A stretch of DNA of 64,000 nucleotides from Euglena gracilis (lineage: Eukaryota): contig CP154954.1 in NCBI GenBank assembly GCA_039621445.1, positions 26,610,954 to 26,674,953 on the forward strand, written 5' to 3'. Shown here piece after piece: positions 7,624 through 53,400 of the stretch (position 1 is its first letter; every line of letters starts with the position of its first letter). The position numbers and the translations under genes were made by a program. The notes beneath the pieces are model-generated. The model saw nothing but the letters and a program-made list of their open reading frames with translations, was not told the DNA's origin and did not search any database.

Positions 7624-10600
7624 AATGCGCATCCGCGCATTCTGGAAGCGGAGTGCGCAGGTGCGCATTCTGGATGATGGCTTCTTCCAGACTGGGGGCA
7701 AACACCACAAAAAATGAGCTGTTTGGATATTACACGACCACAGGGACCACCCCCTTGTTTTCTGGTTCAACTACGTATCATGCTGTTTACAGCTGTTTCA
7801 CGACGACTGTGGCACGGTGCGTGGCTGGACAGACACTCGGTGCACTCCACACGACATGCAAAACACGGGCGACGCAGTACAACCTAGACCTGGGTGTTCC
7901 ACCTTGTGTTTACCGATGAGTGCTGATGGCTTCTGGGGGCAGGGCCTGGCGATCCCGGGATGAGAATGGGAAGGAACTCCTTGCAGCCATGGAGACACAG
8001 CCCTCCCAACAGGCTTCTTTTTAAGACCCCTGGGGGGAGGGGGGGTCCCCCCCACCCACCCAGGGTGGCGCGGGCCCCCCCCCCCCGGGGGGGGGGGGGG
8101 GGCGGGGACCCCCCCCCAAAATCGGGCCCGTTAAAGGCAATTTTCAAAAATTTTCGGCGCTTCGCGCCGAAAAGGTATACCCAGCGCCTCCGGCGCGGAC
8201 CCCCCCCCCGGGGGGTTCGGCACGGACCCACCCACCCACCCCCCCCCGGGGGGGGGGGGGGGGGGGGGGGTCAGGTGACTTAAAAAGAAGCCTGCCTCCC
8301 AAGGTCAAAAGAATAGGGTGCCACTGGGTGTCAAGGCCGAAGAATGCGCACCTGCGCATTTTTCGGAACCCAAAAGAATGCACAGGTGCGCATTTTTTTG
8401 GAATGGACACAGGCTGTGGGAAGGGGGAATGCACACACGCGCATTGATGTTGAGGGCACACTGGGTATGGCCTGTTGTTTGCCTGTCTTGAATCCGAGCT
8501 GTGCACCGCTATGATGTGGTTTCAGGCTTTTAGAACATGGTTGTGTGAAGGGGGGAGATGAACCAAAAGAATCACCCTTGGCACCAATGTCGCTGTACCA
8601 GACCACACCCTGAAACACGACACCTGCAGCGGCGTGGAAAACCCTGGGCTCGGCGACGGCAGGTCTCAAGGCACGAATTCATGTCCTTCAGTGACAGGGG
8701 AACTGCCCCTTTGCAGCGCAAGTCACCAAACAAAACAGAATGCGCACCTGCGCATTCGACTTCACCCGCTGCATCCAGTGCCCAGCCCAGGCTATGCTGC
8801 TCTCATGAACGGGTGGAGCACGCCACAGTGCACGTGCAACCGTCCCCCACCCGGCGGAGGTGATGGTCCGGTTGCTGCCAGCGCTGTCCGACCCCACGCC
8901 CCAGAGCGTGCATGGCAGCACACAGCCAATAGGCGCCCTGAACAACCTTATGCTGGGCTGTAGTGCACCGTGCAAGGACCACTGTGCCCCACAATCAGGG
9001 TCAACGCAGGGGATTGTGTCTGATTCCACACACATCCGGTGCTCACTTGGTTGGCACCTCCAGAGCGAAACACGCCTGTCGCCACCTTTGGCATCTTTCC
9101 CAAAAACGGTCTGTAAACACAGAATTAATTCACAATCCAAAATGTATTCAAAAAAGCGAACACCATTGGTCAGTCCTTGCCCCAATATTTCTCCAGGCCC
9201 TTAAAACCGTGAATCAGGTGCAAGCACAGCACAAAAAAAAACTTGCCGATAAACGCAGGATTTTTCCCATTCTGCTTTTTTGTGTATTCCACCGTGTCGC
9301 TCCATTGGAAAACATATGAGAAAGGAATTTCAGTGCCCGAGGAAATTCCTCAGTGACGGGCACCCTGATTCCCAACTGCGGTCAGCAGACTTCATACCAT
9401 GAGTAAAAAGACGGTGAATGCGCACATGCGCAAAAAAAAGCGTCCTGCACCTTTCTTTATACATTTCCACAATTTTATACAACACACACCGCCGAATATT
9501 TGCACTCCCTACACCTTTCTTTAAATTAGGGCCACACCACCAAATATTTGCACTCCCAGGTGGGCATGCCACCACCCACGCCAACTCCCCCCACCTGGCC
9601 TGGGTTTGGGGCCGCGCAGCTGAAGTATAGACATCCCTGCAAGGATCGAATGGTGTCCGAGGACGAGGCAGCCCTGGAGCAAAACACGGCAGGCAAAACA
9701 CAACCACCACCTGTGGCCTTGTTGGCAACAAACGTCACCCACCACATAGAACCCTTATTTTATCATGTACTCAGAGTCGACGCTCCAGCACTGCAAACTA
9801 CACAACCCCTGGCCGCTGTGAAGACCAAGGAAAGCACATATGCGCACACCTTCACCACACACCTCATCACCGATGGCTGCTGTCAAACATGACACATCAG
9901 GGTGAATGCGCACATGCGCATTCCCTTCTTGTGTCTCCCCTTGAAGCACCCTGGTAGGAGGTTGCCACACAGAGCGATGCCCAACAACTCAGCACACAAG
10001 GTGGAGACACAGCCTGGGAGACGTACACCCTACTCTGGGATCATCCACCTGTGCAATGAGATGCATGTGAAATTGCTAACAAAAAGGCCAGCAGTGCACC
10101 ATGGGGGTTGCCCTGCCGCAATGCTGTGCTGACACTGGGTTTAGGAGTGCCAGACATCACTCCCCACAACAAAGAGAATGCGCACCTGCGCACTCCCCCT
10201 CACGGAATGCGCAGGTGCGCACTCTTATGGATTCCAAGAGCGGCTCCCCTCCTGTCCTCCTGCAGATAAAATAACAGCCAGCCAGCGAAGGAATGGCCTC
10301 AAGAGTGCGCACGTGCGCATTCTTGTGCCTCATGCAACCTCGGAGAGGAGCCATTTTGTATCGTTTGTGAGGGCTGTTCTGGAGGGTGTAGCCTGTGGCA
10401 GAAAGTGTTGAAGTGGGGCTCCGCTCCGAAGCTTTCAAAACCAGTGACACACAGGAAAGGCGTGCAAGCCAGCCCCCCCCCCTTCCATACCCAGCATCCC
10501 AAACGGCAGACCTGAACACAGGTGGTCGCACGTGGTGATGTGCCGTGGTGCCTATGAGAAGGCACATGCAGAGCGGACGGCGTGCGCGACTGGAGGGATG

Positions 10601-11243
10601 CTGTGCCTGCATGTGTCGCGGAGGGGTGCAGTGCACCGTGCGGAATGGCAAACAGCAGGCAGCCTGAGGAGGGTAACGAGCCCTCCCTTACAGACATGTG
10701 GTGTGGATTTATTTAAACACCCCCCACCACTCTCTGAATGCAGACGACACGCACACACCAAACATTCGCTAGCGCCCTCTCGTGTCCAGCTTCCAACACA
10801 GGACACAGAACCTCCCCTCCACTCTAACTGTAGAGACCACGGTGCCCCCTTCCCACAACCACCCCCGGGAGGCACAATAACTGTCCAACACTTCAGGAAA
10901 AGGTCGGGACGGAAGGGGGGGTGAATGTGCATCTGCGCATTCACTGGCACCACAAGACAGGGGGGACAGCGACAGGTACATCAGCTTCACCTGACGAGGG
11001 TTCGTACCCGTGAAACAGCGTTTTGTGTCGCACCTACTTCGGCAGACGGGGTTTTTCCCCCAGTCAGTGGAGGTGCCACACCGTTATTTTCAAAAAGAAA
11101 AAAAGCGGGTTTACCCAAGAAAAAAACACGGGGGTCGAAGGTGGTGTTGCACATTTTGGTACCAGGGTTTCAGCTGACGGGTGCGCCGCCCCGTTAAGTG
11201 ATGGCAACACAGTTGGTGAAAAAAGAATGCGCAGGTGCGCAAA
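7624..11243. repeat. Dispersed cluster of about 13 copies of the 20-bp quasi-palindrome GAATGCGCANNTGCGCATTC
   Basis: Copies near 7624, 7651, 8342, 8376, 8428, 8738, 9416, 9904, 10176, 10205, 10303, 10923 and 11226, separated by unrelated sequence of irregular length. Confidence 0.85.
8010..8294. mobile_element. hAT-like MITE, 285 bp
   Basis: Perfect 16-bp terminal inverted repeats (TIRs) CAGGCTTCTTTTTAAG / CTTAAAAAGAAGCCTG. Perfect 8-bp TSD CCTCCCAA (8002-8009, 8295-8302). Confidence 0.93.
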
Positions 11244-11638
11244 CAAACCACCAAAAATGAAAAGTGCATTCCCAGCCGTCTAAGGCTTTTGGGTTCCGGG
11301 GTGGCTGCTCAGGCAGCCCCCCCAGGGAGGGTTGTATAATCATTTAGCTCCCGGATCAAAAGACCTCTGCCAAACACAAGCAATTGAGGAACTTGACAAA
11401 AATACCATGCTAGCTGCACCTGACATAAAGATGGAAACTTTTCTCCGCCTGACCAAACTCATTGTTCCATGCAAAGCCCTCACCGCACACAAGACAAACG
11501 GTGGTGTGCTCGCATGGCGTACAGACACACCACAGGGTGGACAGCCCGTACTCCTCGCCAATGGGCAGCCAGCACTCTGGGGCGCGGCGCTTGTCGGGCG
11601 CGAGGCCCCTGCGGTGATGGGCGTGGAGATGGGGGGGC

Positions 11639-13596: not shown

Positions 13597-14110
13597 CCAG
13601 GTTTTGAATAGTGCTGAGCTCTTGATAAGCGCACACCCACCCCTTCATAGACCCCTCTATATACACCAGCCCACTCCACGGATCTCTTTTGACTGAAATG
13701 CAAGGGTTTTGTGCCCGAAACCGGAGGCCAGGAGGTCAAAAAAAAAGTCGTTTTTGGCTCAAAAATCACCTTTTCTGGGTCCGGGAGGCCAAAAAACATC
13801 GTTTCGGGCAAAAAAAAATTTCGATTTTTTTTCGACTTTTTTTGACCCGGGTTTGACCCAAAATCAATGGGTTGACGGCCCAGAACGGGGCGCTGGCGGG
13901 TCGAAAAACGCTCATTTTCGGCTCAAAAACAGTTTTTCTGGGTCCGGGAGGCCAAAAAACATCGTTTCGGGCAAAAAAAATCGATTTTTTTCGACTTTTT
14001 TTTGGCCGAAAATGGCTAAGTCGGACAGTGGAGAAAGTGTACAAAATGGCCCAATTTGGCCGAAAAACGGCCGCATCTCGGGCTAGGCGGTGAGCTGCGG
14101 GGAAACCAAA
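13597..14110 (-). mobile_element. 3' part of the Helitron-like family (inverted copy)
   Basis: Begins ccaggttttgaatagtgctgagctctt, the near reverse complement of the family 3' end AAGAGCTCAGCACTACACAAAACCTGG. Internal similarity to 25140-25330. Confidence 0.6.
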
Positions 14111-14127
14111 GGTGGGGGGGGGGGGGG

Positions 14128-14765
14128 CCGCTGAGCTCTTATCCCTTTATGGGTAAGAGCGAAGCTTACCACTGGCGAACCCCCCCCCTCGACCCCCCCC
14201 TCCCCGCCCCCCCCCCCCGGGTCGGGGCCACCAGGAGAACCGACGGATTATCACCATGATTCTGGCCCGGTTCCCGGAATTATTTTTTTCAATCGCGAGC
14301 GACTGGATTTCTAGTTTCCGAATCACCTGGGTTTGGCCCCCAACTCCCCGCCAGGCCCGAGTTATTCACGCGCGAAGGGGTCCAAACGGGGTAGGATCGG
14401 CCCGCCCCCCTGGATAAGCCCCCCCCCTTTAGACTCTGCCATTTCAGCCAAAAAAAATTGTCAATTTTCAAAATATCTCCAAAATGAAGCCAACTCAAAG
14501 GAAATGTCCGGAAACCTAATTTGAAGCCCTTGGAACGCCCCATCTACTGGTATTTTGATTTCCCCGCAACTCCCCGCCCAGCCCGAGATATGGCCGTTTT
14601 TGGCCCAGATGGCCATTTTGTACACTTTTCCCACTGTCCGACTTAGCCGTTTTCGGGAGGTGGGGGGTCAAAAAATCGATGTTTTCAAAATTTCTCGAAA
14701 AAGATGCAAAATCAAAGGAAATGTCCGGAGGCCTAAATTGAAGCCCTTGCAACGCTCTATCTACT
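14128..14765 (+). mobile_element. 5' part of the Helitron-like family
   Basis: Starts cgctgagctcttatc...taagagcgaagcttaccac and carries the ~215-bp internal unit (aatgaagc...aaatgtccgg...aagcccttggaacgccc). Confidence 0.65.
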
Positions 14766-16780
14766 GGGAGTCATCAAACCCTGGGGGCCGTCCCGGAACA
14801 AAGTTTGGCTCCATGCGACTGCTTCCCGGGATGGGCCAGCAGGTCAATGGGGGCGGGGGTGAATGAGCGGAGGGCTGGCGTGTCCTCCCCCCGCATGTTC
14901 GGTACTGTGCGACAAGTGCCCCCCCCCCAAAAAAATAAAAAAGAACAACACGGGGATTTTTGAAATTTTGGGTCTGCTTGGTCAAAATTTTGCCGTTTTT
15001 TTCTTGTTTTCACATTTGGGCAGCCGAAATCATTTAGGGGGGGGGCCACTCCAGTACAGCCCAATGTTGAGCCAAACTTAGGCGGCCGGATTCGCACTTA
15101 AGGGTTTTTTTCTTTGAAATGGGCGCATTTCCGCAAAATAAACAATTTTTGCGAAATTTCTGGGAACCCGCACCCCGACACCAGAAGACAGTTTATGAAC
15201 TATTACACCCCTCTGTTAGAGGGGATTAACTCCAGGTAATTTGGTGCACATGCTGCTTACCGGGTGACGCAAATAGGGCCAAGGGTGGGATTGGTGCTCT
15301 CGTACATCAAACAGGAGGGAAACACACACCCACTGTTACGAAACTTGGAACTGGTTCTGAATCATTGGCTGAAGTGGCTTGGATACTGCAGCCGCCCGTA
15401 AGAACACAGGGAGAGATATTGCATCACACACCACAGAATACGTCAGTGAGACATCACACAACTGATGTGTGGTTGTGGACGAAAATGCGCCCACAAACAA
15501 AATTGTTTGTGCGCGCAAATGCGCGCACCAACGTGTTGGGGAAACTGGTATAGGGATGGTTTGTGCAATGGGAGACAACGAACAACATGTCTGTGTTAAA
15601 GCACACTGATGATTACCATCGACCTACAAGGTTTTTGAACATGATAGGCGGTTTGGTGCGCACATTTGCGCAAATAAACACAATTATGTTTGTGCGCACA
15701 TTTGCACAGATGCGCACACAAACATTTAAGCAATCGCTTCAAAATGGTGTGTTTGAGCGAGCCTTAGCGCACGCAAACAAAGTTTGTTTGTGTACACAAA
15801 TGCGCAAATCAACATACATCAGTTGTGCGACACCATCTCCTCATCCGTGACAGCTGGCAAATGCAATTCCACATGCCAACCATTGGTTTGCACCCCGAGG
15901 ATTGCATGGTGATGAAATTTGTGGTGAGAGGTAGTGTGTAATGTTCACTTGAACATGGCATCTGACTGGCCAAAATTGGCCTGCCTTACGTGTGTGCATT
16001 TGAACTGCTGTTCTCCGGCCCGAACAGCCGGTTGTTTTGGCGTCATCCGTTTGGCAGTTAAGTGTAATGAATTGATGACGTGCAAACGACCTGTGACCGT
16101 TCGGCACCTTTTCTGCAACAGCGCTGCGTTACAAGAAGTCAAAATTTAGCACTTGAAATACCCGGGATGTGTCGGGCCGGAGTCCGTTTTCTGGTTATTC
16201 TCCACCATTTTTCCCTTGAAGAACGTAAAACACACCAGTTTTTGTGCATAATTTGTGGGGGGTGAATCCCACAGCTTTGATGCAACCAACCGAATGGCAA
16301 AGGTTCAGCAATTCCTTGCACCCAAAGTAACAGGTGTTTGAGGGCTATCTCTCTCCGGCTGTTGGTTGCCATGCACTGGCACCACGTCGTCCCCCCAGTC
16401 TCGCGGCCCGATTGCGGTTATAACGTGGCCGTGCGCTGGGTGTTGTTGCACCGGGGAGGTCGACCAGCCTGGTGGGTGCTGAAGCATCAGCAGCTGATGT
16501 GGCTGCAGCAGCTGAGCCCAAGCCACGGGCCAGTGGCAGGGCCCTGGGACCCTAAAATTGGTGCCGGTGGACGGGTGCCGTTACCGGGTGGCTGCGCACC
16601 CACCTTCAGGAGATCCTCTGTCTCCATATTTTAGGGGACCTGCCAATGGACCAGAAACGGCACCCCAATACCATGTGCCGGAGGAGACGGTGTAGGCATT
16701 TGGGTTGAACCCATTCAGAGGCCACTAAAGGTAGCTGTTGGAGGGCGAAATGAGGCTGCTTTTTACTCCTCCATTGGTGG

Positions 16781-16925
16781 TTCATTTGCGTGTTTGCGCG
16801 CATCACGTTGTTGGTGGGTGCAAATGCACAAAACAACCAGATGTAAATTGTGCAATTTCTTTCATGTTGTTCATTTGCGCATTTGCGCCCACAAACAACG
16901 TGATGCGCGCAAATGCGCAAATGAA
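16781..16925. repeat. Foldback with ~55-bp arms built from GCGCAAATGCGC motifs
   Basis: ttcatttgcgtgtttgcgcgcatcacgttgttggtgggtgcaaatgc is inverted relative to gcatttgcgcccacaaacaacgtgatgcgcgcaaatgcgcaaatgaa. Confidence 0.8.
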
Positions 16926-17201
16926 TCACATCTGCTGCTGGCGTTTAACGGTGGTGTTTCCGTCACACCCTTCTTTGTGTTTATGTGCGCATTTGCGCCC
17001 ACCAACACAAACTGTGTTGATGGGCGCAAATGCGCGCATAAATACAATTTTTGTTTGTGCGCGCATTTGCGCCCACAAGCCTGTACCATCAACAAACAGT
17101 GTGACAAACCCACAAAAATATGATTCTGGATGGCCCACTGGTACGAGCCGTCACGACCCCTTTGTCACGCCATTTATCGACGGTGTCAGTTCATGGGCGC
17201 T

Positions 17202-17323
17202 AAAGCCCAACCCTTGAAGGACAAAGTTGTGTTTATTTGCACAAACGCGCGCACCAACATAATTATGTTTGTGCGAGCATTTTTGCAAATAAACACAATT
17301 TTGTCCTTCAAGGGTTGGGCTTT
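17202..17323. repeat. 122-bp spacerless palindrome
   Basis: The 61-bp arms match at 56/61 by hand; centre AACATAA|TTATGTT at 17262/17263. Confidence 0.92.
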
Positions 17324-17940: not shown

Positions 17941-18007
<67 letters not shown>

Positions 18008-31215: not shown

Positions 31216-31771
31216 TTTAATATTTGAATGGCACCATGTACGTGCTTTATTTTGTTTTGATTTTCTATGTTTGAAATTTTAATTTTTATTGCTTGGTATT
31301 GCTTGTTTTCATTTTTTCTGTTTTATTTTTCACTGAAATATTGTCTCTTTTTTCATTTTATTTTAATTAAATTTTTCATTCATATTATTTCACATATACA
31401 TATACATGTATCATGTTATTATTTATTTTGATTTTCCATTATCTTGTTATTTTTGCTCTTGTTCTATTCTTGTTAGTTTTCCATCTTCTTGTTCTTGCTG
31501 TTTTAAATTATTTTTAGTATGTTTTATTCTTTTGATTTTTTTTTAATTTTTAGACTTTGGATTTTTGTATTCACTTTTCCACTTTTGCAACCTTCAAATT
31601 TTTGTATCGTCTTTATTTTCCTTTTTTACGTCATTTCAGGATTTGAATGGTGGTTGTACGTTAGACAGGTATCATTTGTCTGTCAATGATTTGACTGTTG
31701 CCCACCAGCGCAACCACCTTGTGTTGTGTTGTGTTGTGCTGCCTTCCATCATCAACCCAGATTGTTATTTA

Positions 31772-38045: not shown

Positions 38046-38468
38046 AACCCCCCCCCAAATAATACCCCCCCCGGGGTATTATTTTTTCGCCCGAAGTCCC
38101 GGCCCGAGGGGGGGGGGTATTATTTGGGGGGGGGGGTGTTATTTTTCCAAAATTTTCGAAATTTTTCGAAGTCCCGTAAAACCCAAAATAGCACCCAAAA
38201 CCGCCCTTTGGGGTCATTTTTTGCACTTTCTTGTGAAATTTACCATTTTTGGAGGTCAGATGAGCCAGAAAATTCCATTTTTTTTTCATAATTTGTTGTC
38301 AGAGATTGTGATTTTTACCGACATTTTCAGGTCAAAAATCCGGGCCTTCGGCCCGGAACAGGGGGGGGGGTATTATTTCGGCGGCCGAAGGCGGACCCCA
38401 AGGGGGGGGGGGGGGGTATTATTTGGGGGGTATTACTTGGGGGGGGGGGGGTATTATTTGGGGGGGTT
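38046..38468. mobile_element. TA-TSD MITE, inverted sister of 22963-23834 lacking the nested insert
   Basis: TA|aacccccccccaaataatac ... gtattatttgggggggtt|TA. Internal sequence is the reverse complement of 22990-23380. Confidence 0.9.
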
Positions 38469-38689
38469 TACCATTCGGGGGGGGGGGGGGACTATTCGGA
38501 ATTTTGGTTGAAAACCGAGGGGGGGGGCTTCTATTCGGGGGGGGGGGGCTTCTATTCAGGGGGGTTTACTGGTTGATGCAAGGTCCTGAGGGTCATTTGC
38601 TTCGACTGCCCACATTTTGGAGATATTTGAAAATGTTGATGTTTTGACCCCAAAATGGCCCAAATTGGCCAATTCAAAACAGGCCAAAT

Positions 38690-38997
38690 CAGGCTTCTTT
38701 TTAAGTCAGATGGGTCTGGGGTCCGGGTCCGGGGGGGGGGGGTGTCCCGCGCCGGAGGCGCCGGGTATACCTTTTCGGCGCGAAGCGCAGAAAATTTTTG
38801 AAAATTGTCTTTAATGGGCCCGATGTTGGGGGGGTCCCCGCCCCCCCCCTCCCCCCGGGGGGGTCCCGCGCCACCCTGGGTGGGTGGGGGGGACCCCCCC
38901 TCCCCCCTTAGTTGCACTAAGGCTTCTTGTCTGTTTATGGCCGGCGCTGACTTCGCTTCTGGCCCAGTTTGCTGCGTGGGTCTTAAAAAGAAGCTTG
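38690..38997. mobile_element. hAT-like MITE, same family as 8010-8294, opposite orientation
   Basis: TIRs CAGGCTTCTTTTTAAG / CTTAAAAAGAAGCTTG (15/16). Perfect 8-bp TSD GGCCAAAT. Confidence 0.93.
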
Positions 38998-39695
38998 GGC
39001 CAAATTTACAGAATTTGGAGCGAAATGACCATAAGTGGCAAAATTTGAGCTGTCCGTGAAAATATGGGGAATCAAATTACCATTAGATGATATTACCATT
39101 AGATTTCAAAGGGCTTTCTTTTAGGTTGCTGGACATTTCCTTTCATTTTGCTTCCTTTCTGAGGTATTTCAGAAAGACTGATTTTTTTTTACCCAATACA
39201 ACCCAAAGATGGCCCCAGAAATGACTGAAAAATGGCCATAAGTTGAGCTAAACAAAACAATCGGCAAAAAAAGTTAAAATATGGTTTGATAGGGCATTTC
39301 AAGGGCTTCATTTTTTTGGTCGCTGGACATTCCTTCTGTTTTTATTTCACGTCCAAGATATTTTGAAAAAATCGATCGTTGACCCGAAAAACGGCCTAAA
39401 ACACCCCAAAATGGCCGTTTTGGGGGCCACAAAAACGAGCCAGAACACGGCCAGGTGGCAGCCAAAATTGTTGGGGGTGATAGAGGGTCTCCAGGGTACA
39501 TTTGGTCTGACAGATGCTTTCGGAAGTGATGTAACCCCCCCCCCTGATATAAACCCCCTTTGGGTCTTGAAATTTCGCCAAACATAACCACCCCCGAATA
39601 GAAGCCCCCCCCTCGGTTTTCGACCAACGTTCCGAATAGAAGCCCTGAATGCCAGGCCGATAGGTGCCCCACCCGGCCGGGCACCAGACTGCCAG

Positions 39696-40298
39696 CAGGG
39701 GGGGGAGAAATTGCACATCGGGAGGTCGAAAATTGCAGTGCAAAAAATTGCACAAAATTGCACAAAACTGCACAAAATTGCACAAAATTGCACAAAATTG
39801 CACATACCAGAAAAGCCATACCAGAAACCAGAAAAGCTGCATATTCTGCCAACTTACCTGGTCGGTTCACCCAAAAAGTTGCAACCTAACCAGCCGTGGC
39901 AATATGCGATGGCACTACTTACGCCATTCATCCTGAATTTGTTCATCATCCAGCGGAAAGACACAACAATTCATACTGAGAAACTACCAAAGCATCTTAT
40001 ACGAACCTGTTTGTAGAACGCCTATTGCTCCTTTGCCAATTGGCCGATTGGGTTTGAAAACTGAGTAAACCAACAATGAACAGCCTTTGAACGGACATTT
40101 TCACTGCACATCAGTTTCCCAGCAAAAAAAAAACCGGTAAGTTCTCAATTGCATCGAAAACTGACATTTTCCAAAACAAAATGTCCCGGGCCATGTGCAA
40201 TTAATTGCACAAAATTGCAAAAAAAATTGCACATTTCTGGAAAATCGAAAATTGCACAAAGTTGCAAAAATTGCACGGTGCAATTCCCCCCCCCCCTG
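39696..40298. mobile_element. hAT-like element with AAATTGCAC subterminal tandem repeats
   Basis: Ends caggggggggagaaattgcac / gtgcaattccccccccccctg, flanked by the direct repeat ctgccag(c). Confidence 0.85.
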
Positions 40299-41613
40299 CT
40301 GCCAGCCAGGCCGCGCCAGGCTGACCTGACCCGACAGGCCGGGCCGGGCCGGGCCGAAGGCCGCCGGCAACCATACATCTGCTCAAACATCAAAATTTTA
40401 CTGCCCAGGGCTGCCGAGTCATCAAAAGCACACAATAAGAAATTACAAGCCTGTGCAATGCCCTATCTGATGGTACCTGGCTTTCACACGGCCAGCTAGA
40501 GTTACAGCCCGTGTTCCACTGAAATTTTTTGGCCAGGCTTTTGGCCGTTTTTGGTCCGTTTTGGGCCAAAACTTGACAAAAAACCCAATTCTCAAAATAT
40601 CTCAAAAATGAAGCAAAACCAAACAAAACGTCCGGAGACCTGCTTAATTGAAACCCTTAAAACGCCCTATCTAATGGTATTTTGATTTTCTTGCAACTCC
40701 CCGCCTAGCCCGAGACATGGCCAATTTTCGCCTAAACAGGCTTCTTTTTACCAACCCTGATGGAGGGGTGCCTTGTACTGTGGGGTGCCTGTCCACAGCA
40801 GGAACCCCACAGGGAGTCAGTTTTGGACCCTGGTGACTGCTGACCAAGCCAAATTTCCCTTGAAAACAGCCATTTTGGGGCGCCGGAGCCGGGGGGTGTG
40901 CTATGTACTACCCACCCCAAAACCCAACCACAAATTTCGTCAAGCTTGAGACAAGAAAAAGTGGTGCTAAAACCTTCTGTAGATCCCCCCCACACAGCCA
41001 AAAAACCGGGGGGGGGGATAATCGGTCGGGTCCCCCACCAGGTTCCTCCGGCTGAGGAAGGGGCGGTGCTTTCCAAAAAACCACAAATCACAGCGTAGTG
41101 GTTGTTTTGGGCCCCAGCTGGGTCCGATACAGGCAAATTGCAATGTTGCAAAAAAATGTTTGCACCCCAGCGCCGTTGGCGCCGGAGATGTGATGTGGCC
41201 ACCCACCCCAAAACCCAACTCCCCCCATTTGGGGGGGATGTGATCAGACGTGTCTAATTTCTCCATCCCTAAGCAAAATGGGGGGATTTTCGACTGGGGG
41301 AAATCTACAGAACCAAAAAAAAACATGCCAGGTGCCAGCAATTGTCACCTTTTCCGGTTATTTTGGAATTTGGAGAAAAGGTTCGCCCTCTGGAAATACA
41401 CATATGTACACCACATTTTGGTGGTAACCCTGAGATTCCTGGACCCGTCGTTTTGCCGAGAAAAATGAGGTTCATTAGTGCAGCTCTGTAAGGCCAAAGC
41501 CTTGGCTCAGGGACAGTGCACCCCCAGTTCTTGTGCCTTTTTTAATGACTTGTTTTATTTCCAACTGTCCCCGCCTGTCGGTTCCATTTATTCCTTCTCC
41601 AACTGTGGGGTTA

Positions 41614-42680: not shown

Positions 42681-43641
42681 TGCATGCCATTCAGCTGTGG
42701 AAGTTGAAAGTTTTGGGATGCAGCTTCCACATACCCACACATTATCTCGTTATTTTCATGAAACTCTTGAAACGGAAGTTTTTAAAATTATAATGTTTAC
42801 ATAGACATGCATGCACAAACAAACAGCAACAAAGGGCATTTTGAAACCAGGTCTGCTGCCCCATGAGTGCCTGGGCCTGGACTTCAGGCTTGGTATATGA
42901 CTGAGCCTGAAATGTGACGAGGACGGGCCCCAATGCCCCACTCTGTTCTCCCCATCCCTTTCTACTAGACACTCAAACGCATGCACAAAAACCAATCGGT
43001 GCCAGTTCTTTCCGGCCCTCACAGTCCAACCTCTCCAACCACCAACGTCACCGTCGACCACCCGAAACACACGCGGCCCTCTCAGTACGTGAGTGTGTGG
43101 TCCCTCGTCAGCGTACAAGAGGAGTGTGTGCCACATCATTTGCCCACCTGTGGGCAAATGATGTGGCACAATTTCTGCCCCAAGATGTGGCACCGAACTG
43201 GCCCAAGATGTGGTTTCAAAGTGTTACGCCAAACTGGTGCGCCAAAACGTGCCCCCCCCCCCTGTGGCCAAGGTGTGGCAGCAAACTGGCCCTAAAAGAT
43301 GGCTGGAAAACTGCCCCCATTTGTGCAGGCCCAGTCCAAAAAAAAAGATGCCAGCACATCCAGCAGTTGATGGCAAGGGTTACAGTGGAGTTAAGGTCAG
43401 GGTAAAGGATAAGGTTAGAGATGGAGTTAGGGTTAGGGATGGGGCTAGGGATTCAGAATTAGCGTTAGGGATAGGGCCAGGGTTAGGGCCAGGGTCAGGT
43501 CTAAGAGTACGGTGGGGATTAGGCCCTTTGTTCTCCCAAAGGTTCCAAACAGTAGAGCTTCGGCCAGTCACCTTCTTGTCCACATCGACCGTTTCCACAT
43601 TTCCCCACCTTCCTCCGACACCTCCAACCGAACACCGCCAT

Positions 43642-43763
43642 TCCACCACCGACACCGCCACCCCAACCTCGACCCCGACCCCCAGCGCTTCTGCCACCGC
43701 AACGCCCACCTCCACCCCCTCCGAGACGGACACCGCCACTCCAACCGCCACCGAGTCCCCCAC
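43642..43763 (+). CDS. Exon A, Thr/Pro-rich (STTDTATPTSTPTPSASATATP...ESPT); borders approximate
   Basis: ACC/GCC-rich codons with a T-x-T periodicity. Confidence 0.65.
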
Positions 43764-44380
43764 CCCCCCTCCAAGGGGCGCGGCGCTTGGGACAGGAGTC
43801 CCCCCAGCAAGCACCTTTCGGCGAGGGGGGCGGGGAGGCATTGCGCGGCGTGGCGCTCCCGCTGACTCGCACCACCACATTGACCGCAACACCGTCGGCC
43901 ACCAGCACCCCTACGCCCACTGCCACTCCCACCGAGACACTGACCCCCACCGGCACCGACACGCTGACGCCGACTGACACCTCGAGCCGGACCGGCACCG
44001 GCACCCGAACCCGCACCATCACTTCCACGCCGACCCCCACCGGCACACCAACTGCCACCCAAACCCCAACAGTGACCCCGAGCCGTAGCAAGACCATCTC
44101 GGGCACCCCGACGCCCACCACCAGCGCCACCCCGACCAAGACCCGCACGCGGAGCCAGACCCCCACCATCACCGTGACCCGGTCCCGGACCATGTCCCCC
44201 ACCCCGTCCTACACCGTCACCAGCACGCCGACGGCGACGCCCACCAGGACCAGCACCATCACCCCGACCTCGACCACGACGAGTACTGCAACAACGACGC
44301 GGTCTTCGACAGCCACTCGCACCAGAACTTGGACAAGTGTGTGTGTAAGTGTGGTTGGGTGGGTGGGTTGGTTTGTCAGG

Positions 44381-44411
<31 letters not shown>

Positions 44412-47400
44412 CGCGAGTGGTGTGGTGCACGCTTTTTTTTGCGCGCCTATGGATAACAAGTGCACGTTGTGAATTCAGATGCACCGTGTGTTAAAATCAA
44501 TATGGTGTACATATCTGTATGTCTGTCTTTATATTTTGTATGTTTGGACAACAGAAGTTCACATAACCCCCCCAAACAACACCCCCCCCCCCCCGTGTGT
44601 TATTTGGGCACCCGAACTGGGGCCCCAGGGGGGGTGTTATTTGGGGGGGTGCTATTTTCACATGGAAAACCAAAGGAATTTTCAAAGGAAAACAGGGGGG
44701 GTGTTATTTGGGCGCTCGAAATCGGCCCCCGAGGGGGGTGGTGTGTTATTTGGGGGGGGGGGTTATTTGGTAGGGGGTTTACTCAATGTCATTTTTTTTG
44801 GGTGAGGCATTTGCTCAGGATCTCATTGGACAGATCACCTCCAGTTCTGGATTTCAGTGAGAGATTACCCAGTGTAGATTTCTTTATCCCTCCCCAGAAG
44901 TTGAAGAAGCCCGCACCAGCTCATTTGGTGATTATTTTGAAGTTCATATTTTTATTTTTCTTTGAATGTGAGAAATAATGGCGATGCCCCTACAACGCTT
45001 TTGCGTCAAAAGTTGCAGCATATGATGACGATGGCTGGCTGCCCAGCAAGGCGCAGGCGAATCCTCAAGAGGTAACCCTGAGTCATAGCCTCCTTTCTCC
45101 ATGGCAAGATGGCAAGGGCTTTCTTTTCACATGACGAGTTTTTTTTTGCTTTCAGAGGTTGTATTTTATATTTGACTGAGTCAACATTTATATTTGTGCC
45201 CATGGGTTGTGGTTTTTACATGAAGACAGGGAGTGAGCTGGTGGAGGAGAGTAGGGAAAGAAAGCAGACATAAACCTCACTTTCAGCTTTCTGGGCAGAG
45301 GAACATTGCCTTTTGAAATAGTTCTTGTGGAAGGCAGGCGCAAAACACTGAAAACGTTGGCACACACACACAAAATAACCGTCATTTGACCCCTTGGAAA
45401 AGGCACCGGTTGCCGAGGCTTTTAAGACCTTCAACGCCTTTCCTTTTTGCGCATTTGTGCTGCTGTTGGTCCCAGGGCGGCAGGTCATGGGAGTGTATTT
45501 GTTTTTTGGGGGGCATGTGCCTGTTTAATTCAAAGACCCCCGGGGGGGGGGTGGCTGGGCCGGATCCCCATGGGCCCCGGAGGCCTGGGTGTGGGTTTTG
45601 GTGCAAAGCACCAAAGGTTTTTTTGGGAAATGCCCTTAGGCAGCCCGATCTTTTGAGGGTCCCCCCAGGAGAGTCCGACGGTTGGGGGTCCAAAAAAAAC
45701 CTGGGGAGGGGCGGTGGTTTCTCGCTGGTGGCCGATTTCCTCCCGTTCTGTGCCTCCATCCCCGCTGCCGGGGCCACTCGTTTCTCTCCAGACACGCAGA
45801 CGTTCATCCCGACGTACACGCCGACCCTGTCCCAGTCCCGTACCCCGACTCGCACCCGTAGCGCGACCATCACCCGCTCCGTGACGACCACCCGCAGCGC
45901 CACGCTCACCGCCACCTCGTCCTCCACCCGCTCCACCTCCATCACCTCCACCGCCACTCCCAGTACAACGTCCAGGCTGGCTCGTCTGTGTCCCCGGGAT
46001 GTGTGCCCAGGGGAGTTGCATTTGCTTTTTTTCTTGCACCTTGGTGAGAAGATTTTGAAGGGAATCGGGTGCGCATTTGTCTGGATCTCTGCCAGCCAAG
46101 TTTGGGTATCTCACCACACATATGAAGTGAACAACAAACTTTTCCCCCCAAAAAAACAAAGTCCAAAGTACAACTGGAGCCATGAATTGCTGGACATTCT
46201 GTCGGAAGTCTCTGGATGCATCGGGGCGCCAGAAAATTTTTATCTTACCTACCCCCCCCCCCGGGAAACTGTCATGCCCGAGAACCTGTCAGGGTCCCGC
46301 CCGGGAAACTGTCAGGGTCCCCGGTACCGGCCAACCTGTCAGTATAGGAAGTTGTCAGGGTCCCCAGTACTGGCCAACCTGTCAGGTGACAGTTTCCCGG
46401 AGGGGGGGGGGTAGGTATTTAAAAATGAACCTGGCCATAAGGTTTTTGTGAGTGGCGTAGCTGCTGCCAATCCGGCATGTTACGGCATGGCTGGATGGCG
46501 GCGGGACCGTCATGAGCACCGGGTACCACAGCAAGGCGGCTGGGCACGGACACACACAAAACATGCATTTGCAGTGGGCAGGGGGGGGGTGTCCCATGCT
46601 GTGCCGAGTGTGTGGAGAGAAACCCCGCAGGGTCTTAATAAGTGGGCCTGGTCCGAACGTTCTCCCACACACATTGTTGCTGACATTTTGATAAATGACC
46701 AGTTTTTGTGCCTGACCAAAAGTTTTTGCACCCAAAGTCCCAAAGTTGTCCAAATGTTCATTTTTTTTGGGCACAACTCTGTCAAAAATGCCGAAAATTT
46801 CTGGGATGAAGTGCCTGAATGAATAATTTGACCTTGCCGGAGCATCGTCGCAAAGCCGGAGGGTACCCATCCCTCCCGGGTCCCAACCATGTGGTGGAGG
46901 AGGTTAGGTGGTAGGGGCTGTGGACCCCCTGGATGTGTGAGGGGGGTCTGGACTGGGCCAGAAGCAAATTTAGCGCCGGCCATAAACAGACAAGGCTTAC
47001 AAAGAAGCCTTAGTGCAACTGAGGGGGTAGGACCCCCACCCTGCGCGCTAGAAAATGAGCAAAAAACGCCTTTTTTCATCACCTTTGAGCATGTTAGTCG
47101 TTTTTTTTGATGTTTTGGTGTTTTTCGCCTAGAAAAAGTGTTCAAATTTTTCAAAAAATGAGCATTTTTGGATTCATTCTCAAAGAAAAACAGGGACTTT
47201 TGAACAATTTTGGTCTGTTTTCCAGCTCTTTGCCCGTCTATAAAGCCAAGCATTTTCCTGCCCCCATCAATTTCGAGGTAGGAGGTCCCCCCCCCTTCGT
47301 GTCGGGGGTCCGACCCTCCCCCAAGGCTTCCCAACTATCCCTGTCGGGGGGGGGGGGTTCAGCCAGCCAGCAGCCTTTTTCCAGCGGTTGCCCAAAAAAG

Positions 47401-50400
47401 CGGCCAATTACGCAAAAAAAAGCAACAACAACCGTTTTTAACTCCAAAATCAACGCCTTGGGAAGCACAAGTTGGGAGTTTGTTGCTCCGGACTGCCTTC
47501 CCCCATGGTCAGGGGGGTACCCCCCCCCACCCCTGACATCCTCCTCATATAGAATGCCAGCGACAGGACGGTTTCCAAAAACACGCGCTACAGGGCTCCC
47601 CAAAGGTCTTTGTGGTTTGTGAACCCGAAGCTTGAGGACGGCTTTGTGCTCACTGGCGACGATGTGGGGGGGGGGGGAACTGTCCTCTCCCGCGGAGCAC
47701 ATGGGGGGCCAAATTCTGAACCCTGCCTGCCGCCAATGCGTGTTTTTTTTGTACGTGTCCATGTCCAGCCGTCTTGCTGTGGTGCTTGGTGCTCGTGACA
47801 GCACAATTGAAGCCCCATCCTTCAGGTGGTGTGATCCATTTCATAGCCTCAAACCTTTTGGTCATTTCCGGCTTCGCAGCTCACCGGAAACTTCCGGCTG
47901 GGTTTGATCTGTAAGGCGTCTTGCTATGCCCCACAGAGTATTCATGGCCCCAACCGTGTTTCCTCCGTGTCCCAAAGCAATGGGTGTGCCGTCTGTTGGA
48001 AAACCTTGAACTCTCTGAAGCATTCCTCCGAACCTGTGCCAATAAAATTATGATATTGCATGAAGGAAAACAGCCCAAGACATGTTGGGAGGATCTCCCT
48101 CCCGGTCCCAAAATTGCGTCAAAGCCTGAAAGGCCTTGCCACACCGTGACAGATTTCCAAGTTTTGCCTCAATATAATGCGATATTTTCAGAGAACTTGC
48201 TTTCTGCGTTGGCCTTCCTTGACAACAGAAGACAGAGAAGAGGCTACCTTGTGGGGCATATCCACCCCCAGTGGTTGAAAACCTTGAAATCATCCAAAAG
48301 GTCATGTAATCAAGGGTAATTTCCTGACAATGGACCAGAACCAGAAAGAAACAGGAAAAATTTCCAAGGAGGTAAAGACATTGGAAAGACATTGGAAAAT
48401 AAATGCAAAGTTTTACCATTGGGGATGCTTCATGTTGCGCTTTGTTACGGAGCTTCGTGTTTCACGTTGCACGTTTCAACCACGTTTTCTGTCAACGGGC
48501 CGGCCACTTCAGGCCATGCCCTTGTGAGGGTTGTCGTCGGCGCCCGCCTGCCCCCGACCACCGCCACCCTGACCGACACCGCCACCATGACTCTGACCGT
48601 CGTACCCACCACGACCCCCACCCCGACCGCGACCGCCACCGGGACCCACACCCGCAGCGCCACGCCGACCAGCACGGCCACCGGCCTCCTCACCGACACC
48701 AACACCCCGACTCGCAGCCGGAGCGAGAGCCGCACGTGGACCATCACCGCCAGCGGCACTGCCACGGCCTCGGCGTCCGCCACCGCCACCGCCTCCGCCA
48801 CTGTGACCACGCTGTGCTTTTGAGGCGCACCACTGCGCAGAATCGTCGCGTGTTTGATCACAGCACCGCCAAACTTTTACACAGCGTCCAACCAACGTGA
48901 AGACAGGTCCATTTGTTGATTCAATTCCTTGTGGCTGGAGAACAGTGGAGCGAGCATTTTGCTCACCAATGGAAAATTTAATCAACAAGATTTCATTTCA
49001 ATTCATGCAACAAAGCTTCTGCCTCAGAGAAAGAGACCAAATCCATTTGAAGAGATTGAAGTCTTGCATACTCCTGCTCCGTTGAGAGTTTGAGAAGATT
49101 GAAAGGAATTTGCAGCGAAAAGAAGTTAAGGTTGACAAGCTCATGACTGTCCCGCACACAAGCTGGAATTCCTCAGAAATCCCCTGGCTGGGGTGCCCCC
49201 GCGGGGCTGTCTGTTTTGCTGTGACCGGTCCGGTTGATCCGAGTTGGTGGAGAAGCTGGCGTGGCGGGCGACCCATACCCCCTCCGCCACCATCACCAGC
49301 ACCGAGACCCCCAGCATCATCCGGCTCACCGGCATTTCCCCCGGGTTTGTTTGCTCTTCCCTTTGATTTCCCCGCACCTTGTTGCTGGTGTTTTCCGTGC
49401 CGTGCCTGCAGAGGGACTGGGGCCCCAGACTGTCTGTCTGAGGCCTCCCCCACTGTAAACCCCCCCCCCCAAATAACACACCCCCCGGTGTGTTATTTGG
49501 GCGCCCGAGCTGGGGCCCCAGGGGGGGGGTGTGTTATTTGGGGGGAGATGTTATTTTTTTCATGGAAAACCAAAGGAAAACAGGGGGGGGTATTTGGGCG
49601 CTCGAAATCGGCCCCCGAGGGGGGGGGTGTTATTTGGGAGGGGGGTTTACCTCCCCAGCAGTCGGTGCATAGTTGTTTCCGCAGAAGGGGGCAAAAAATG
49701 CCCCTTGTGCCCCTTGTGCCCTTGGAACAGTGCACTCAGAAAGGAGAACAGTAGAAATGCTCCATGGGAAATGCTCCAGGGGCAGTCTTCTTTAAAACTG
49801 GGACCCCCCCCCGGCGGGGGTGGGGGCTGGGGGTGGAGGAACATTGGGTCAGAGGGGCTGAGTGGTGGGTGACTCGATGGGCCAGGGGGGGTCCTGCCCA
49901 AAGGGATGGTTTGAGCTGAAAGTTATGATGCCCCCCTGGATGGTTGGGGGGTTTCCCTTTGAGGACCGGCTGCTCAGAGCCCCGGATTTTCGATGAAATG
50001 GCCAAAGACCATGAAAAGGGTTTTTGGACGATGTCTTTCGATGGGGTTTTCTGCGACCCCGTACCCCGGTCCCTCCCATGGCCCACCCCAACCTGGATGG
50101 AGGGGACCCCAGGGGTCTTAAAATTGAAAGGAAAGCTGGCCTCGGGGCTCCGGGGGGGGGGGGGGGGATAAGTTGAACGGGAGAAATGCTGTGGAAAAAT
50201 ATGGGTGAAATCGTGTCTGGTATTTTTCTGTAGTTTTAAGGATCCGTCCAGGATCTGTCCCTGCAAATTTAAGGAAAGCCTGGTTTCCTCCAGTGAACGC
50301 TCAAAAGATTCCTTTTCCTTTTCCTTTTCCTTTTCCTTTTCTTTTCCTTCGGCGCTTCGAGCCGATTCTTTGGAAGGTGTTTACCCCCCTCCAAATTACC

Positions 50401-53400
50401 TGTTCAGAAGGTATTTTGGTCATACAAAATGAAAGAATTTCTTTTCTTTTTTCTTTCTTTCAATTTGGAATTTAGGATTTGACCGATTTTTGAATTTCTA
50501 TTTTGAGAAAACCATGCGATTTTGATGTTAATTCTGAATGCTTTTTCTGAAAAATGGGTTCGCAAGGTTCTTTCGGCAATCACTGTTCCTGGCCATTTTA
50601 AGCCCGCATCCAAGGTTTCCCCCGGATTTCAAGGCTCCTTCCCATGTTTTCCCCGCCAGATTTTTTGCTGTCAGCCAGAGTTGACCTGTCAGCCTATTCC
50701 CCCTCCTCTGCAGCTGTGTCTTGCACTGGACGTGCCCACCGTACGGGCAAATCCGACCGGAGGGCCCACTTGTGGTGGGGGGGGGGGGCAGCGGGTCGGG
50801 TCCCCTGCTGCACTGCCGCCCGCAGGAACGGGGCTGTGCTGCCCCGCCAGGGGGCCATCTGGGTGTTCACGTTCGACCGCAACGTCCAGCTCCGCGGCGG
50901 GACCGCCAACCCCAACGCCCTCGCCCGCCTGTTCATGGGCGGCGTCACGTTCGCGACGTTCCCTGCGACGGACAGCAGTTTCAGCGTCAGCGGCCGAAGC
51001 CCAGGCAACCCTGTTTGGGACGTTCGTTGCATGCAAACACCCCACACAAAGAAATATTTATTATTGAACCTTTTGTACTGCAATACCATGTCCCCCCAGT
51101 TATTCTCCCCGGATGTTCATTTTTCCCCTGCCTCCCCGTGCCTGAAAAAGTGGGGAGGGGGCTTTCTGGTGTTGCACCGCAGAGCAGCGCAGGGGGATTG
51201 CTTATCAGTGGCACACGCGGTACATGGCTGGCCACGGTTACAAAACAGGAAACAGGGGAAAAGGACAAACAACTAAAGTGCCTCGCCGTGTGTGTGGTTG
51301 TAGTGGGACGTGTGTGCCCTCAAATGATGAGACAGGTCGAAAGAAAAGAAAAAATCTCGGCCAAACGTTGCACGGAGCGGGGGGCGCCTGCTGCCAGGTC
51401 ACGTGGACGTACCCCGGCACGTTGACGGCGGCCGTCACGATGCAGCTGCTGCTGGACGCGGGCTTCGTCGGGGAGGCCGCCAACCGCTCCGGCTACTTCC
51501 TCCGGCCAGGACACCCCTCCCAGGTGGGGGTGGGGAGGTGGTGTGCAGGCGGCATGGCCCGCACACCGAGGCAAGGGTTGGGATCGGCCAAACTCCAGGT
51601 CCAGCCATATTCCAAGTTTTATTTTGTCCTGGGCAGACAGCGAACCCGAGCTTGGGGTGGGAGCATGGGGGAGCCGCGGGAAGTGTGGGGGTGTGGGCGG
51701 GGTCACGTGCGCCAGAGATCCTCAGCGGTTTGAACTGTCCCGTCACTGTCCTGGGGTCTGGTTTGGTTGGCGGGGGGGGGGGGGCAGGGCTGTGTGGGAA
51801 TTCCCGAAATTCTGCAGGTGGATGAAATGGTCGACCTCACCGATCCTGGTCGGGGGGGGGGGGGCACCACCTCCCCCTCCCGCCAGGCCTTCCATCCTTT
51901 CTGGTGGCGTCGATTCCAATGTCCACATTCTCCTTCCGCGCCAGATGGGTTCCTTTGTTGTGCTGTGGCGGATGGGGGGCCGCCCCACCCACCACCACCT
52001 GTTGGTGGGTTGGTGGTCTGTTGGGGGAGGGGTCCGACCCCGGGGGAGGGGGGCCCTGCCGCCAGGCCGGCCCGTTCCAGTACGCCACGGAGGGGCTGCC
52101 CTTCGACGCCACGGACAACTACACCCTGGCCCTGACCAGCCGGGTGGCCGACTTCTCCGCCAGCGCCTTCTGCGCCGTCCTGCAGCAGGTGTGGGGGGGC
52201 CGGCGGGGCGGGGCGGCCGGCAGGGGTGGGGCGGCCGGAAGTCAGCCCGCAGCTCACGGTGGGCTGGCTGTCCTGGTCCCTGCCACATGTGCCCCGGTCT
52301 AAAAGCCAAACGGCGTTCTGCCATTTTCCGCGCGCCGCGGTCCACCCCACCCATGTCTGTCTGGGGCCCACACGTCAAGTTGCGTCGTTTGGGGCGGTGT
52401 TCTTTTTTCGACTCTCTTGTGAGGAAGGGGTTGCAGCGGCACCAGAGTAGCAGGAGGGGCATGTTTTTCCTTGGACTGTTTATTTTGTTGGACCATTGAA
52501 ATGATGTTCCAGAGAAGTTGTCCATGGGTGTCTCATAACCTCCCCCCAAAAATAGGCACCCCCAAAATAAGACCCCTCCCCAAATAAGACACCTCTGGGC
52601 CGATCGAGCAAAAATCCAAATATTAGACCCCCATACATAAGACCCCCCCCCCTGACGGCGAGCGCCGGGTACAGTGAATTTTTTTGATTTTTTTTTCATT
52701 TTTCACCTGAAAAAAGTACCCAAACCCCCAATTTCATAGACAAAAATGGCGAAATTATGAAAATTTTCGGATTTTTGAAGTGAAAAAAACATGGGAAATC
52801 TCAACATGTACCAATTTACACATGGCGCGAAGCGCCAGAAAATTTAACTGTTTTTGGGAACCTGAGAAATAATGCTTTTTTCGGTCCAGGTCGGTCCAGA
52901 AAAAATAAGACCTCCTCTGGAGGTTTCCAGCAATGGACCCAAAAGTAGGACCCGGGTCTTATTTTTTTGGTGGGGGTTATCTTTTGGGGTTAAAAGTTAA
53001 AATGAACACAGAATATTATAATGCGTTGTATGTTTTTCATTATTCACAATACACCGTACAAGATTACAATTATTTTAAACATACATTTTATGATAAAAAA
53101 AATCATGGAAAATGAAAATTAAAGTTAGCAAAGACAAAAAACCTCACAGGGGTTGCATAGGGACTGAAATCTTTATGTGCATTCCCCAAAAAAACGGCTG
53201 TTTTTCAGAGGGCTGTCTTTTGGGTGGGAAAGTTTGCATCCCTTTTGCGAATGGCTGTTTTGATTTAAGGGCATTTGTAGATTATTTACTTCCCCTTCCC
53301 AGTTTCGGGCCAAAGGTCTCAACAATTCGAGAATTCGGAAGATGGATGCTCTCGTTGAGTCCCCCTGTCTTCATCCTCGGTCATCGGCACTGATCTGTTA

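Follow-up and report, generated by a model that had tools for sequence, protein, structure and literature searches.

A Candidate Link Between MITE Target-Site Duplications and the 3+5 Splicing Code of Nonconventional Introns in a 64-kb Window of the Euglena gracilis Genome

The window, i.e., the whole 64-kb stretch of Euglena gracilis DNA analyzed here, contains at least three families of non-autonomous cut-and-paste DNA transposons (MITEs), whose termini, both read directly and recomputed, are CAGG...CCTG terminal inverted repeats (TIRs). MITEs and their duplications are given without strand. Family A is represented by MITE A1 (8010-8294; 285 bp, CAGGCTTCTTTTTAAG ends, TIR 21/23, CAGG/CCTG) and by MITE A2 (38690-38997; 308 bp), which lies in inverted orientation, is 91% identical to A1 over 181 bp, has an additional unit of ~80 bp, and carries a right end mutated to CTTG. 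The octamer CCTCCCAA is found on the left (8002-8009) and right (8295-8302) of A1, and GGCCAAAT on the left (38682-38689) and right (38998-39005) of A2, both being 8/8 target-site duplications. MITE B (23386-23824; 439 bp, CAGGGTTCGATATAAGGA ends, TIR 19/21) is flanked on both sides by GGGGGGGG, G8 at 23378-23385 and 23825-23832, and its duplication length cannot be fixed because the poly-G flank is of low complexity. MITE C (39696-40298; 603 bp, CAGGGGGGGGAGAAATTGCAC ends, TIR 19/21) has a perfect 7-bp flank, CTGCCAG, at 39689-39695 and 40299-40305. Duplications directly abutting the TIRs are therefore informative and 8/8 in two of the four MITEs, uninformative in one, and 7 bp in one, which bears out the first-pass annotation, where intact elements bounded by 8-bp duplications, near-perfect at 39696, had been described at these sites. 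Where the flanks are informative, MITE insertion duplicated 8 bp of target. An older CAGG...CCTG element (56938-57190; 253 bp, TIR 20/25), located inside a GT-AG intron, has flanks that are just 4/8 identical (C runs). The MITEs here are intergenic or intronic and encode nothing.

Mobility is evident for two families. The two family A copies occupy sites with different octamers as duplications, and the repeat that hosts MITE B has a paralogue without the element (38048-38124, minus strand; 93.75% identity over 80 nt), in which G9 is followed by TTTA. Among the CAG-terminal TIR pairs of the real sequence, 17 have 13 or more matches, two of them with a flank identity of at least 7/8, whereas none of 100 simulated composition-matched sequences contained such a pair at that flank identity. 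The family A 16-mer has 10 matches in the window against 0.77 expected. In RNA folds, the pairing probability of the terminal CAG with CTG is at least 0.99 in all four MITEs.

The transcribed gene at 43864-60769 (plus strand) has ten exons seen with RNA evidence; joined at the RNA junctions, they yield a single open frame, 598 codons long. The product is Thr- and Pro-rich in its N-terminal part, and a Pfam search with the product gave no match. Introns were defined from RNA contigs (one each in X1, X2, and X9) and raw RNA reads (X21), the reads covering 43001-63000 only. Four nonconventional introns, all on the plus strand, are removed from the mRNA at non-GT-AG borders with the open frame kept; the coordinates of the first three are given in the CAG register, and arrows mark the right-hand cut. 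They are 45970-48555 (gtc-CAGGCTGG...CCCGCCTG-ccccc↓g, with nested repeats inside; four reads across the joint 45968 to 48555, slidable by 2), 50999-51395 (gcc-CAGGCAAC...GCGCCTG-ctgcc↓a; two reads across 50998 to 51396, not slidable, so that its position is unambiguous), 51504-52063 (ggc-CAGGACAC...GGCCCTG-ccgcc↓a, terminal complementarity 13/15; two reads across 51501 to 52062, slidable by 2), and 48805-49269, which has CAC/GTG ends and spacers of 3+6. Contigs and reads together confirm that the first three have the form N3-CAGG...CCTG-N5 followed by a purine, as had been proposed from the sequence. The folded introns have lower pairing probabilities at their ends, ~0.5 for 50999, 0.1-0.19 for 51504, and 0 for 48805.

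A splicing code of exactly this kind, 5'-N3CDG-/-CH'GN5-6↓R, has been defined experimentally with knock-ins in E. gracilis (PNAS 2025; PMC12501133), and the 3+5 rule is thus not new. In that paper, the donor side allows a spacer of 3 nt only, an acceptor spacer of 5 nt is preferred and 6 is tolerated, about 12 bp of pairing are needed in the stem, and synthetic 50-bp hairpins obeying the code are spliced, also out of a foreign exon. Three of the four nonconventional introns follow the code, including the final purine; 48805-49269 does not. The E. gracilis intron consensus has CCAGG at +3 to +7 and CCTG at -9 to -6 (PMC11170887), and the ends of the MITEs match it over four bases, CAGG/CCTG. 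Their TIRs (16-21 bp) exceed the stem requirement.

What is new is the link between the code and the duplication: 3+5 = 8 = one target-site duplication, and this is arithmetically exact. A code cut on the MITEs, 3 nt ahead of the element and 5 nt past it, leaves the exact empty site in three of four cases, and to this extent the earlier claim that such a cut restores the pre-insertion site stands. The same claim held that the elements are ready-made introns in either orientation, which is too strong because under the code the cut must be followed by a purine. Judged by sequence, 8010 complies on the minus strand only, 39696 on the plus strand, and 23386 on no strand but the plus; 38690 satisfies the code on neither strand, and its CTTG end would block splicing according to the point-mutant data in PMC12501133. 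Note that the introns at 45970, 50999, and 51504 are actually removed from RNA, whereas the compliance of three of the four MITEs, on one strand, is a property of their sequence only. We found no paper stating that 3+5 = 8 = one duplication. A MITE-like origin of nonconventional introns has been proposed since 2014, but in general terms, without actual element families, a duplication length, or a superfamily; the window supplies families. As of 2013, euglenid genomes were without any known transposon (PMC3935182).

If the introns arose from such elements, remnants of the octamers might be sought at their borders. The three code-compliant introns have flank identities of 4/8, 2/8, and 5/8, which agrees with the weak residual identity reported in the first-pass annotation. 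The sum, 11/24, has a probability of 0.028 under a null drawn from the whole window and of 0.082 under one with the composition of exons. When the right octamer is slid, the identity sums are 12, 12, 3, 5, 11 (the true register), 9, 8, 9, and 9, so identity at these three introns is not above the shifted-register controls and there is no register-specific flank signal. Likewise, none of the four nonconventional introns is similar to any MITE or to another intron within the 64 kb (E<1e-3). Both comparisons had been suggested as checks of a MITE origin, the first of them genome-wide, and in the window both went against it. Intron 51504 had also been said to carry MITE subterminal motifs; the two motifs are indeed over-represented in the window (21 vs. 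3.6 expected and 7 vs. 2.7), but they also occur in repeats other than MITEs, where the sequence upstream of them is conserved too, which makes the argument weak.

A rival reading is coincidence, in which ordinary MITEs have no role in intron birth, nonconventional introns come, e.g., from filler DNA taken up in double-strand-break repair or from hairpins evolved in place, and the CAG/CTG rule and 3/5 spacing reflect the geometry of the splicing enzyme only. No window intron is a MITE copy, the flanks show no register-specific identity, one intron is off-code, and CAG-type ends with 8-bp duplications are common to hAT elements across many eukaryotes, all as coincidence would have it. Furthermore, direct repeats of eight nucleotides occur at the sole known strain-specific intron of recent gain, and its discoverers interpreted them as a break-repair fingerprint (PMC4770533). 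Against this, coincidence requires several independent numbers to agree by chance: the spacer sum of 8 with the duplication of 8, the four-base match of the ends, the repeats of eight at the one recent intron, and the need for a ~12-bp stem with TIRs of 16-21 bp. Another intron can be placed at "as many as nine positions" (PMC3935182), a maximum that we read as an 8-nt repeat. On balance, we consider coincidence rather unlikely.

The superfamily of the elements is a separate matter. Duplications of 8 bp and YARNG termini are typical of hAT elements (PMC3014272), and hAT MITEs share with the window elements these duplications, short TIRs of 10-25 bp (19-21 matched bases in the four MITEs), and the terminal motif: CAGGG of families B and C fits YARNG fully, and CAGGC of family A fits at four of five positions. 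They differ in that no transposase partner was found for the window elements (none of 10 long window ORFs tested had a Pfam match, a sample far from exhaustive) and in that the Ac-type target consensus nTnnnnAn is matched at only half, three of six, of the informative positions in the duplications CCTCCCAA, GGCCAAAT, and CTGCCAGC; at the introns it is matched at one of six. The elements fit the description hAT-like in duplication length and end motif, the only features from which the label is inferred. Another superfamily with 8-bp duplications, e.g., Merlin, could have acted as the same intron generator, and two Merlin families with such duplications are known from E. gracilis (PMC8101967). 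The lack of a hAT transposase among the 10 ORFs and the incomplete YARNG of family A would suit this alternative; the full YARNG of families B and C does not. GG opens every Merlin TIR described, and Merlin elements code for a DDE_Tnp_IS1595 transposase (PMC8101967), whereas the window elements open with CAGG and have no coding content; were they taken to begin at GG, the duplication, which abuts the C, would no longer adjoin the element. A non-hAT source such as Merlin appears improbable.

Among the closest known systems are the introners of Micromonas and other algae, likewise non-autonomous TIR transposons that give rise to an intron where they insert; part of the splice signal comes from the target-site duplication, and the element is removed with one duplication (PMC11282704). 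They differ in using the spliceosome, GT/GC-AG sites, and 3-nt duplications, and in existing as many near-identical intron copies (PMC11282704); in the window, by contrast, distance from an RNA stem would set the cut, duplications are of 8 bp, and none of the families has a copy that is an intron, so that the introner pattern of many similar copies, each one intron, is not seen within the 64 kb. The non-canonical introners of Amoebophrya and Fritillaria also have TIRs, duplications, and non-GT-AG borders, but their duplications are 3-5 nt, an altered spliceosome is supposed, and there is no fixed 3+5 ruler (PMC11282704).

We regard an origin of nonconventional introns from MITEs, through the identity of 3+5 with one 8-bp duplication, as the probable explanation. 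A MITE inserted into a transcribed exon would bring inverted repeats of 16-21 bp that could fold into the terminal stem needed for splicing. The machinery would measure from the C-A-G:C-U-G stem base, placing its cuts 3 nt before the stem and 5 nt behind it, and would thereby remove the element together with 8 nt, as many as a single duplication copy holds; the mRNA would regain its pre-insertion sequence if position 6 of the duplication is a purine on the transcribed strand. Since the element and one duplication copy would leave together, such insertions would be nearly neutral and would be a main source of new nonconventional introns, with duplications and stems decaying later. A 2024 review (PMC11282704) reports that nonconventional introns leave the RNA as circles whose ends are full-length, and for this reason we favor as the cutting agent an endonuclease that measures structure, acting with a ligase, rather than the spliceosome. 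The published junction rules mirror each other: each cut falls between a pyrimidine and a purine, and C occupies position +3 of the intron as well as position 3 of the exon; a mirrored pattern would be expected from two copies of one octamer. It could, however, reflect enzyme preference rather than duplication, and the tolerated 6-nt spacer, the off-code intron at 48805-49269, and the 4/8 flanks of the fifth element at 56938 also count against a MITE origin. The reverse order of events, in which the machinery and its 3+5 ruler came first and transposons with fitting ends and duplication length were tolerated in genes and thereby amplified, or their ends came to mimic the code, seems improbable; it makes the same predictions as a MITE origin save for that order. 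In its favor, the code works on fully synthetic sequences and so needs no transposon content (PMC12501133), and at least three unrelated MITE families share only CAGG/CCTG. Overall, the MITE origin stands as a hypothesis, well founded and testable, rather than as a demonstrated fact, and no window intron is a fresh MITE copy.

The chances are about even, in our judgment, that the splicing code is an RNA-level eraser tuned to hAT-like MITEs, whose bursts gave rise to most of the hundreds of thousands of nonconventional introns; each exonic MITE insertion would then leave the mRNA without a scar, the 3+5 ruler being equal to the 8-bp duplication. More boldly still, the enzyme that makes the cuts might itself have descended from the transposon's own machinery. 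Nonconventional introns make up ~72% of the introns of E. agilis, and the origin and logic of these euglenid introns have been in question since the 1990s. With element families in the window that have the right ends and a matching duplication length, the vague notion of a "MITE-like origin" gains a prediction in numbers: a repeat of 8 nt in the -5 to +3 register, never longer, and strongest in young introns. If true, this would explain why the ruler is 3+5, why a pyrimidine before and a purine after the cut are common to both junctions, and how the genome tolerates massive intron gain.

The sequence work covered the 64 kb of the window together with public reads mapped to one part of it, and the region shows the typical features of euglenid nuclear DNA: extended runs of G and of C, a high density of repeats, and a gene whose non-GT-AG introns are removed from RNA. 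Reading of the named sites and rescanning of the whole window yielded four clear terminal inverted repeat (TIR) elements with CAGG...CCTG ends, and the elements with 8-bp target-site duplications described in the first-pass annotation are therefore real. Two belong to one family: the element at 8010-8294 (285 bp, TIR 21/23) is flanked left and right by CCTCCCAA, and that at 38690-38997 (308 bp), flanked on both sides by GGCCAAAT, has a right terminus that now reads CTTG. They share a 16-nt end and, lying in opposite orientations, are 91% identical over 181 bp. The element at 23386-23824 (439 bp, TIR 19/21) has G8 on either side, so its duplication length is not fixable; it is nevertheless an insertion, because a paralogue of its host repeat at 38048-38124 (minus strand) runs G9-TTTA without the element, versus G11-element-G8-TTTA in the filled copy. 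The fourth, at 39696-40298 (603 bp, TIR 19/21), has a perfect flank of only 7 bp, CTGCCAG. A fifth, older element (56938-57190, TIR 20/25), whose flanks lie in C runs and agree at just 4/8 positions, sits inside a GT-AG intron and is the only one of the five in the read-mapped stretch 43001-63000; degenerate relatives occur near 28768 and 13271.

Short palindromic repeat fields of the GTGCGCA/TGCGCGCA type, at 7600-11300 and 15450-17300, are the source of many spurious TIR-plus-flank matches, and the candidate at 9557-10188 (TIR 11/13, flanks 7/8) was left uncounted because it sits in such a field. Further inverted-repeat elements at 14006-14656, 31765-32459, and 46525-47783 have arms of 35-49 nt without a clear target-site duplication. 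Within 180-2172, both strands show open reading frames repeated every 660 bp, suggesting a long tandem repeat; in that region the only repeat that TRF (longest period 500) returned was a TATG microsatellite at 1739-1853.

The elements are not readily produced by chance. The real sequence contains seventeen TIR pairs with CAG termini and 13 or more matches, two of them with flank identity of at least 7/8, versus none at that flank identity in any of 100 composition-matched sequences from Markov simulations. Under a looser TIR definition, 8/8 flanks were found in 2 of 327 CAG-type pairs versus 4 of 26,062 pairs that end otherwise, and all four of the latter lie in palindromic or tandem repeats. 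The 16-mer of the two-member family occurs 10 times at three or fewer mismatches versus 0.77 expected; a metagenome scan for two TIRs of this family 250-280 nt apart returned no loci. As to superfamily, the defining features of hAT elements are 8-bp duplications and YARNG ends (PMC3014272); E. gracilis Merlin elements also make 8-bp duplications, but their TIRs begin GG (PMC8101967). No transposase was found in the window in a partial search, in which Pfam gave no family for 10 long ORFs.

The splicing rule into which these ends would fit is already known and is not new here. According to the accessible part of Nomura et al. (PMC12501133), exon knock-ins in E. gracilis defined it as 5'-N3CDG-/-CH'GN5-6|R, with a donor spacer of strictly 3 nt and an acceptor spacer of 5 nt (6 being tolerated); one change in either CAG or CTG was enough to abolish splicing, the motif had to be backed by about 12 bp of pairing, and fully synthetic 50-bp sequences obeying the rules were spliced. 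Nor is a MITE-like origin a new idea: it was proposed in 2014 by Milanowski et al., who remarked that euglenids then had no known transposon (PMC3935182), and restated in 2025 (discussion of PMC12501133), and a 2024 review named CAG/CTG the TIR and called the junction repeats "TSD-like" (PMC11282704). The accessible parts of these three papers give no duplication length, superfamily, or actual element family in their proposals. An explicit statement that 3 + 5 equals one 8-bp hAT duplication was not found in our literature search, although supplementary data outside its reach could hold one.

The arithmetic is simple. In an element of the form T1-8/CAGG...CCTG/T1-8, cuts placed 3 nt upstream of CAG and 5 nt downstream of CTG would join T1-5 to T6-8. 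It had been proposed from the sequence that such a cut restores the pre-insertion mRNA in either orientation. Applied to the real sequences, it gave the exact empty site for the elements at 8010, 23386, and 38690 and did not for 39696, with its shorter flank. The TIRs of all four elements are longer than the 12 bp of the published assay, and predicted RNA folding gave a CAG:CTG pair probability of at least 0.99 in each. The published rules thus predict scarless removal of such an exonic insertion, given intact termini and a purine after the cut. The element at 38690 no longer has an intact terminus, and the base after the cut is a purine for 8010 on the minus strand only, and for 23386 and 39696 on the plus strand; the orientation claim is accordingly narrowed to one strand for each of these three.

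Introns were taken from contigs of three runs presumed to be RNA (X1, X2, and X9) and from raw reads of an RNA run (X21), mapped on 43001-63000. From the joints and contig pieces, a plus-strand gene (43864-60769) emerges with nine introns, five GT-AG and four not; joining the ten exons leaves a single stop-free frame of 598 codons, the other two having 3 and 21 stops. The first exon seen (43864-44336) encodes 157 residues, nearly all in Thr, Pro, Ser, and Arg repeats, with a mucin-like look and no Pfam match; Pfam assigned no family to nine exon translations, and Rfam matched nothing in the entire window. Three plus-strand introns conform to the rule, as the first-pass annotation had read them, and RNA contigs and reads agree with the sequence at their junctions, the register of each lying within its slidability: 45970-48555 (gtc-CAGGCTGG...CCCGCCTG-ccccc|g), 50999-51395 (gcc-CAGGCAAC...GCGCCTG-ctgcc|a), and 51504-52063 (ggc-CAGGACAC...GGCCCTG-ccgcc|a). 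With the reading and rescan of the elements, these junctions confirm the underlying observation as a whole. The fourth, 48805-49269, is off-code: CAC pairs with GTG, the spacers are 3 + 6, and the junction can slide by 4. Evidence for this intron comes from a single contig per run in three runs, one raw read, and the open frame. Direct repeats also flank GT-AG introns of this gene (52185/54561 and 55056/60593, with a slidability of 6 nt in one and 4 nt in the other), in agreement with a published note that repeats are frequent in both classes of intron.

Intron 45970-48555, at 2,586 nt, is packed with nested repeats, the inverted-repeat element at 46525-47783 among them. Summed contig depth is very high over 45669-47002, peaking at 46340-46420 and 46952-46994 (3,670 and 3,280 in X1). 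Many X21 raw reads match only at 46952-46994 and then pass into different sequence (41 and 32 loose ends), and the high-depth unit of this region recurs within the element at 38690-38997 (81% identity over 80 nt). The source is an abundant RNA of repeat origin made elsewhere in the genome.

The three code-compliant introns themselves carry no duplication trace. Their flank identities are 4, 2, and 5 of 8, summing to 11/24 (P = 0.028 versus all CAG...CTG pairs of the window; 0.082 with exon composition). The marginal P was dropped as evidence because shifted registers score equally high: sliding the right octamer from -4 to +4 gave sums of 12, 12, 3, 5, [11], 9, 8, 9, and 9, and the score reflects the C-rich context. 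None of the four nonconventional introns matched a MITE or another intron in the window at E<1e-3, so copies of the element families constituting introns were not seen there. The subterminal MITE motifs once claimed for intron 51504-52063 do recur in the window, yet they are not ends, because in other repeats they have conserved upstream flanks. The 11-mer CCTGCTGCCAG has exactly two copies in the window, at 40295-40305, the right end and flank of the element at 39696, and at 51387-51397, the 3' end of intron 50999-51395 plus the first two exon bases. Its expected count is 0.06, and two copies were reached in 1 of 100 shuffles, the observation being post hoc; the pair may come from preference for a target or spacer, or may be fortuitous.

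Published introns offer further points of comparison. Unambiguous nonconventional introns of E. gracilis have the consensus CCAGG (+3..+7) and CCTG (-9..-6) (PMC11170887), so the match with the element ends is of four bases, not three. According to the accessible part of PMC4770533, intron 4 of gapC in E. agilis ACOI 323, the only known recent strain-specific gain, shows direct repeats of eight nucleotides where it joins the exons, the longest of any intron in that study, which its authors attributed to break repair. For a Lepocinclis tubB intron, the accessible text of PMC3935182 gives "as many as nine positions", which would imply an 8-nt repeat. The published junction rules also mirror each other, each cut being preceded by a pyrimidine and followed by a purine, with C at intron +3 and at exon position 3. 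Exon position 2 is A in 43 of 55 published introns; comparing across papers, this would be position 7 of the duplication, the site of the A in the Ac-type hAT target consensus nTnnnnAn.

That 3 + 5 and the duplication length agree by coincidence is conceivable, but we think it rather unlikely. Variants, in which another superfamily is involved or the order of events is reversed, take what weight remains. Reverse splicing of excised introns as the source of the repeats is ruled out because family copies carry different octamers duplicating their own targets, the outcome of a staggered DNA cut. In the window, none of the introns can be recognised as an insertion and splicing of a MITE was not observed, so the MITE-intron link is one that we infer. 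The equation of 3 + 5 with an 8-bp duplication is nonetheless sound and, as far as our search found, unpublished, and the eight-nucleotide repeat at a newly gained intron strengthens the reading of a MITE origin. On balance, CAGG...CCTG elements with 8-bp duplications are probably, though by no means certainly, a main source of nonconventional introns.
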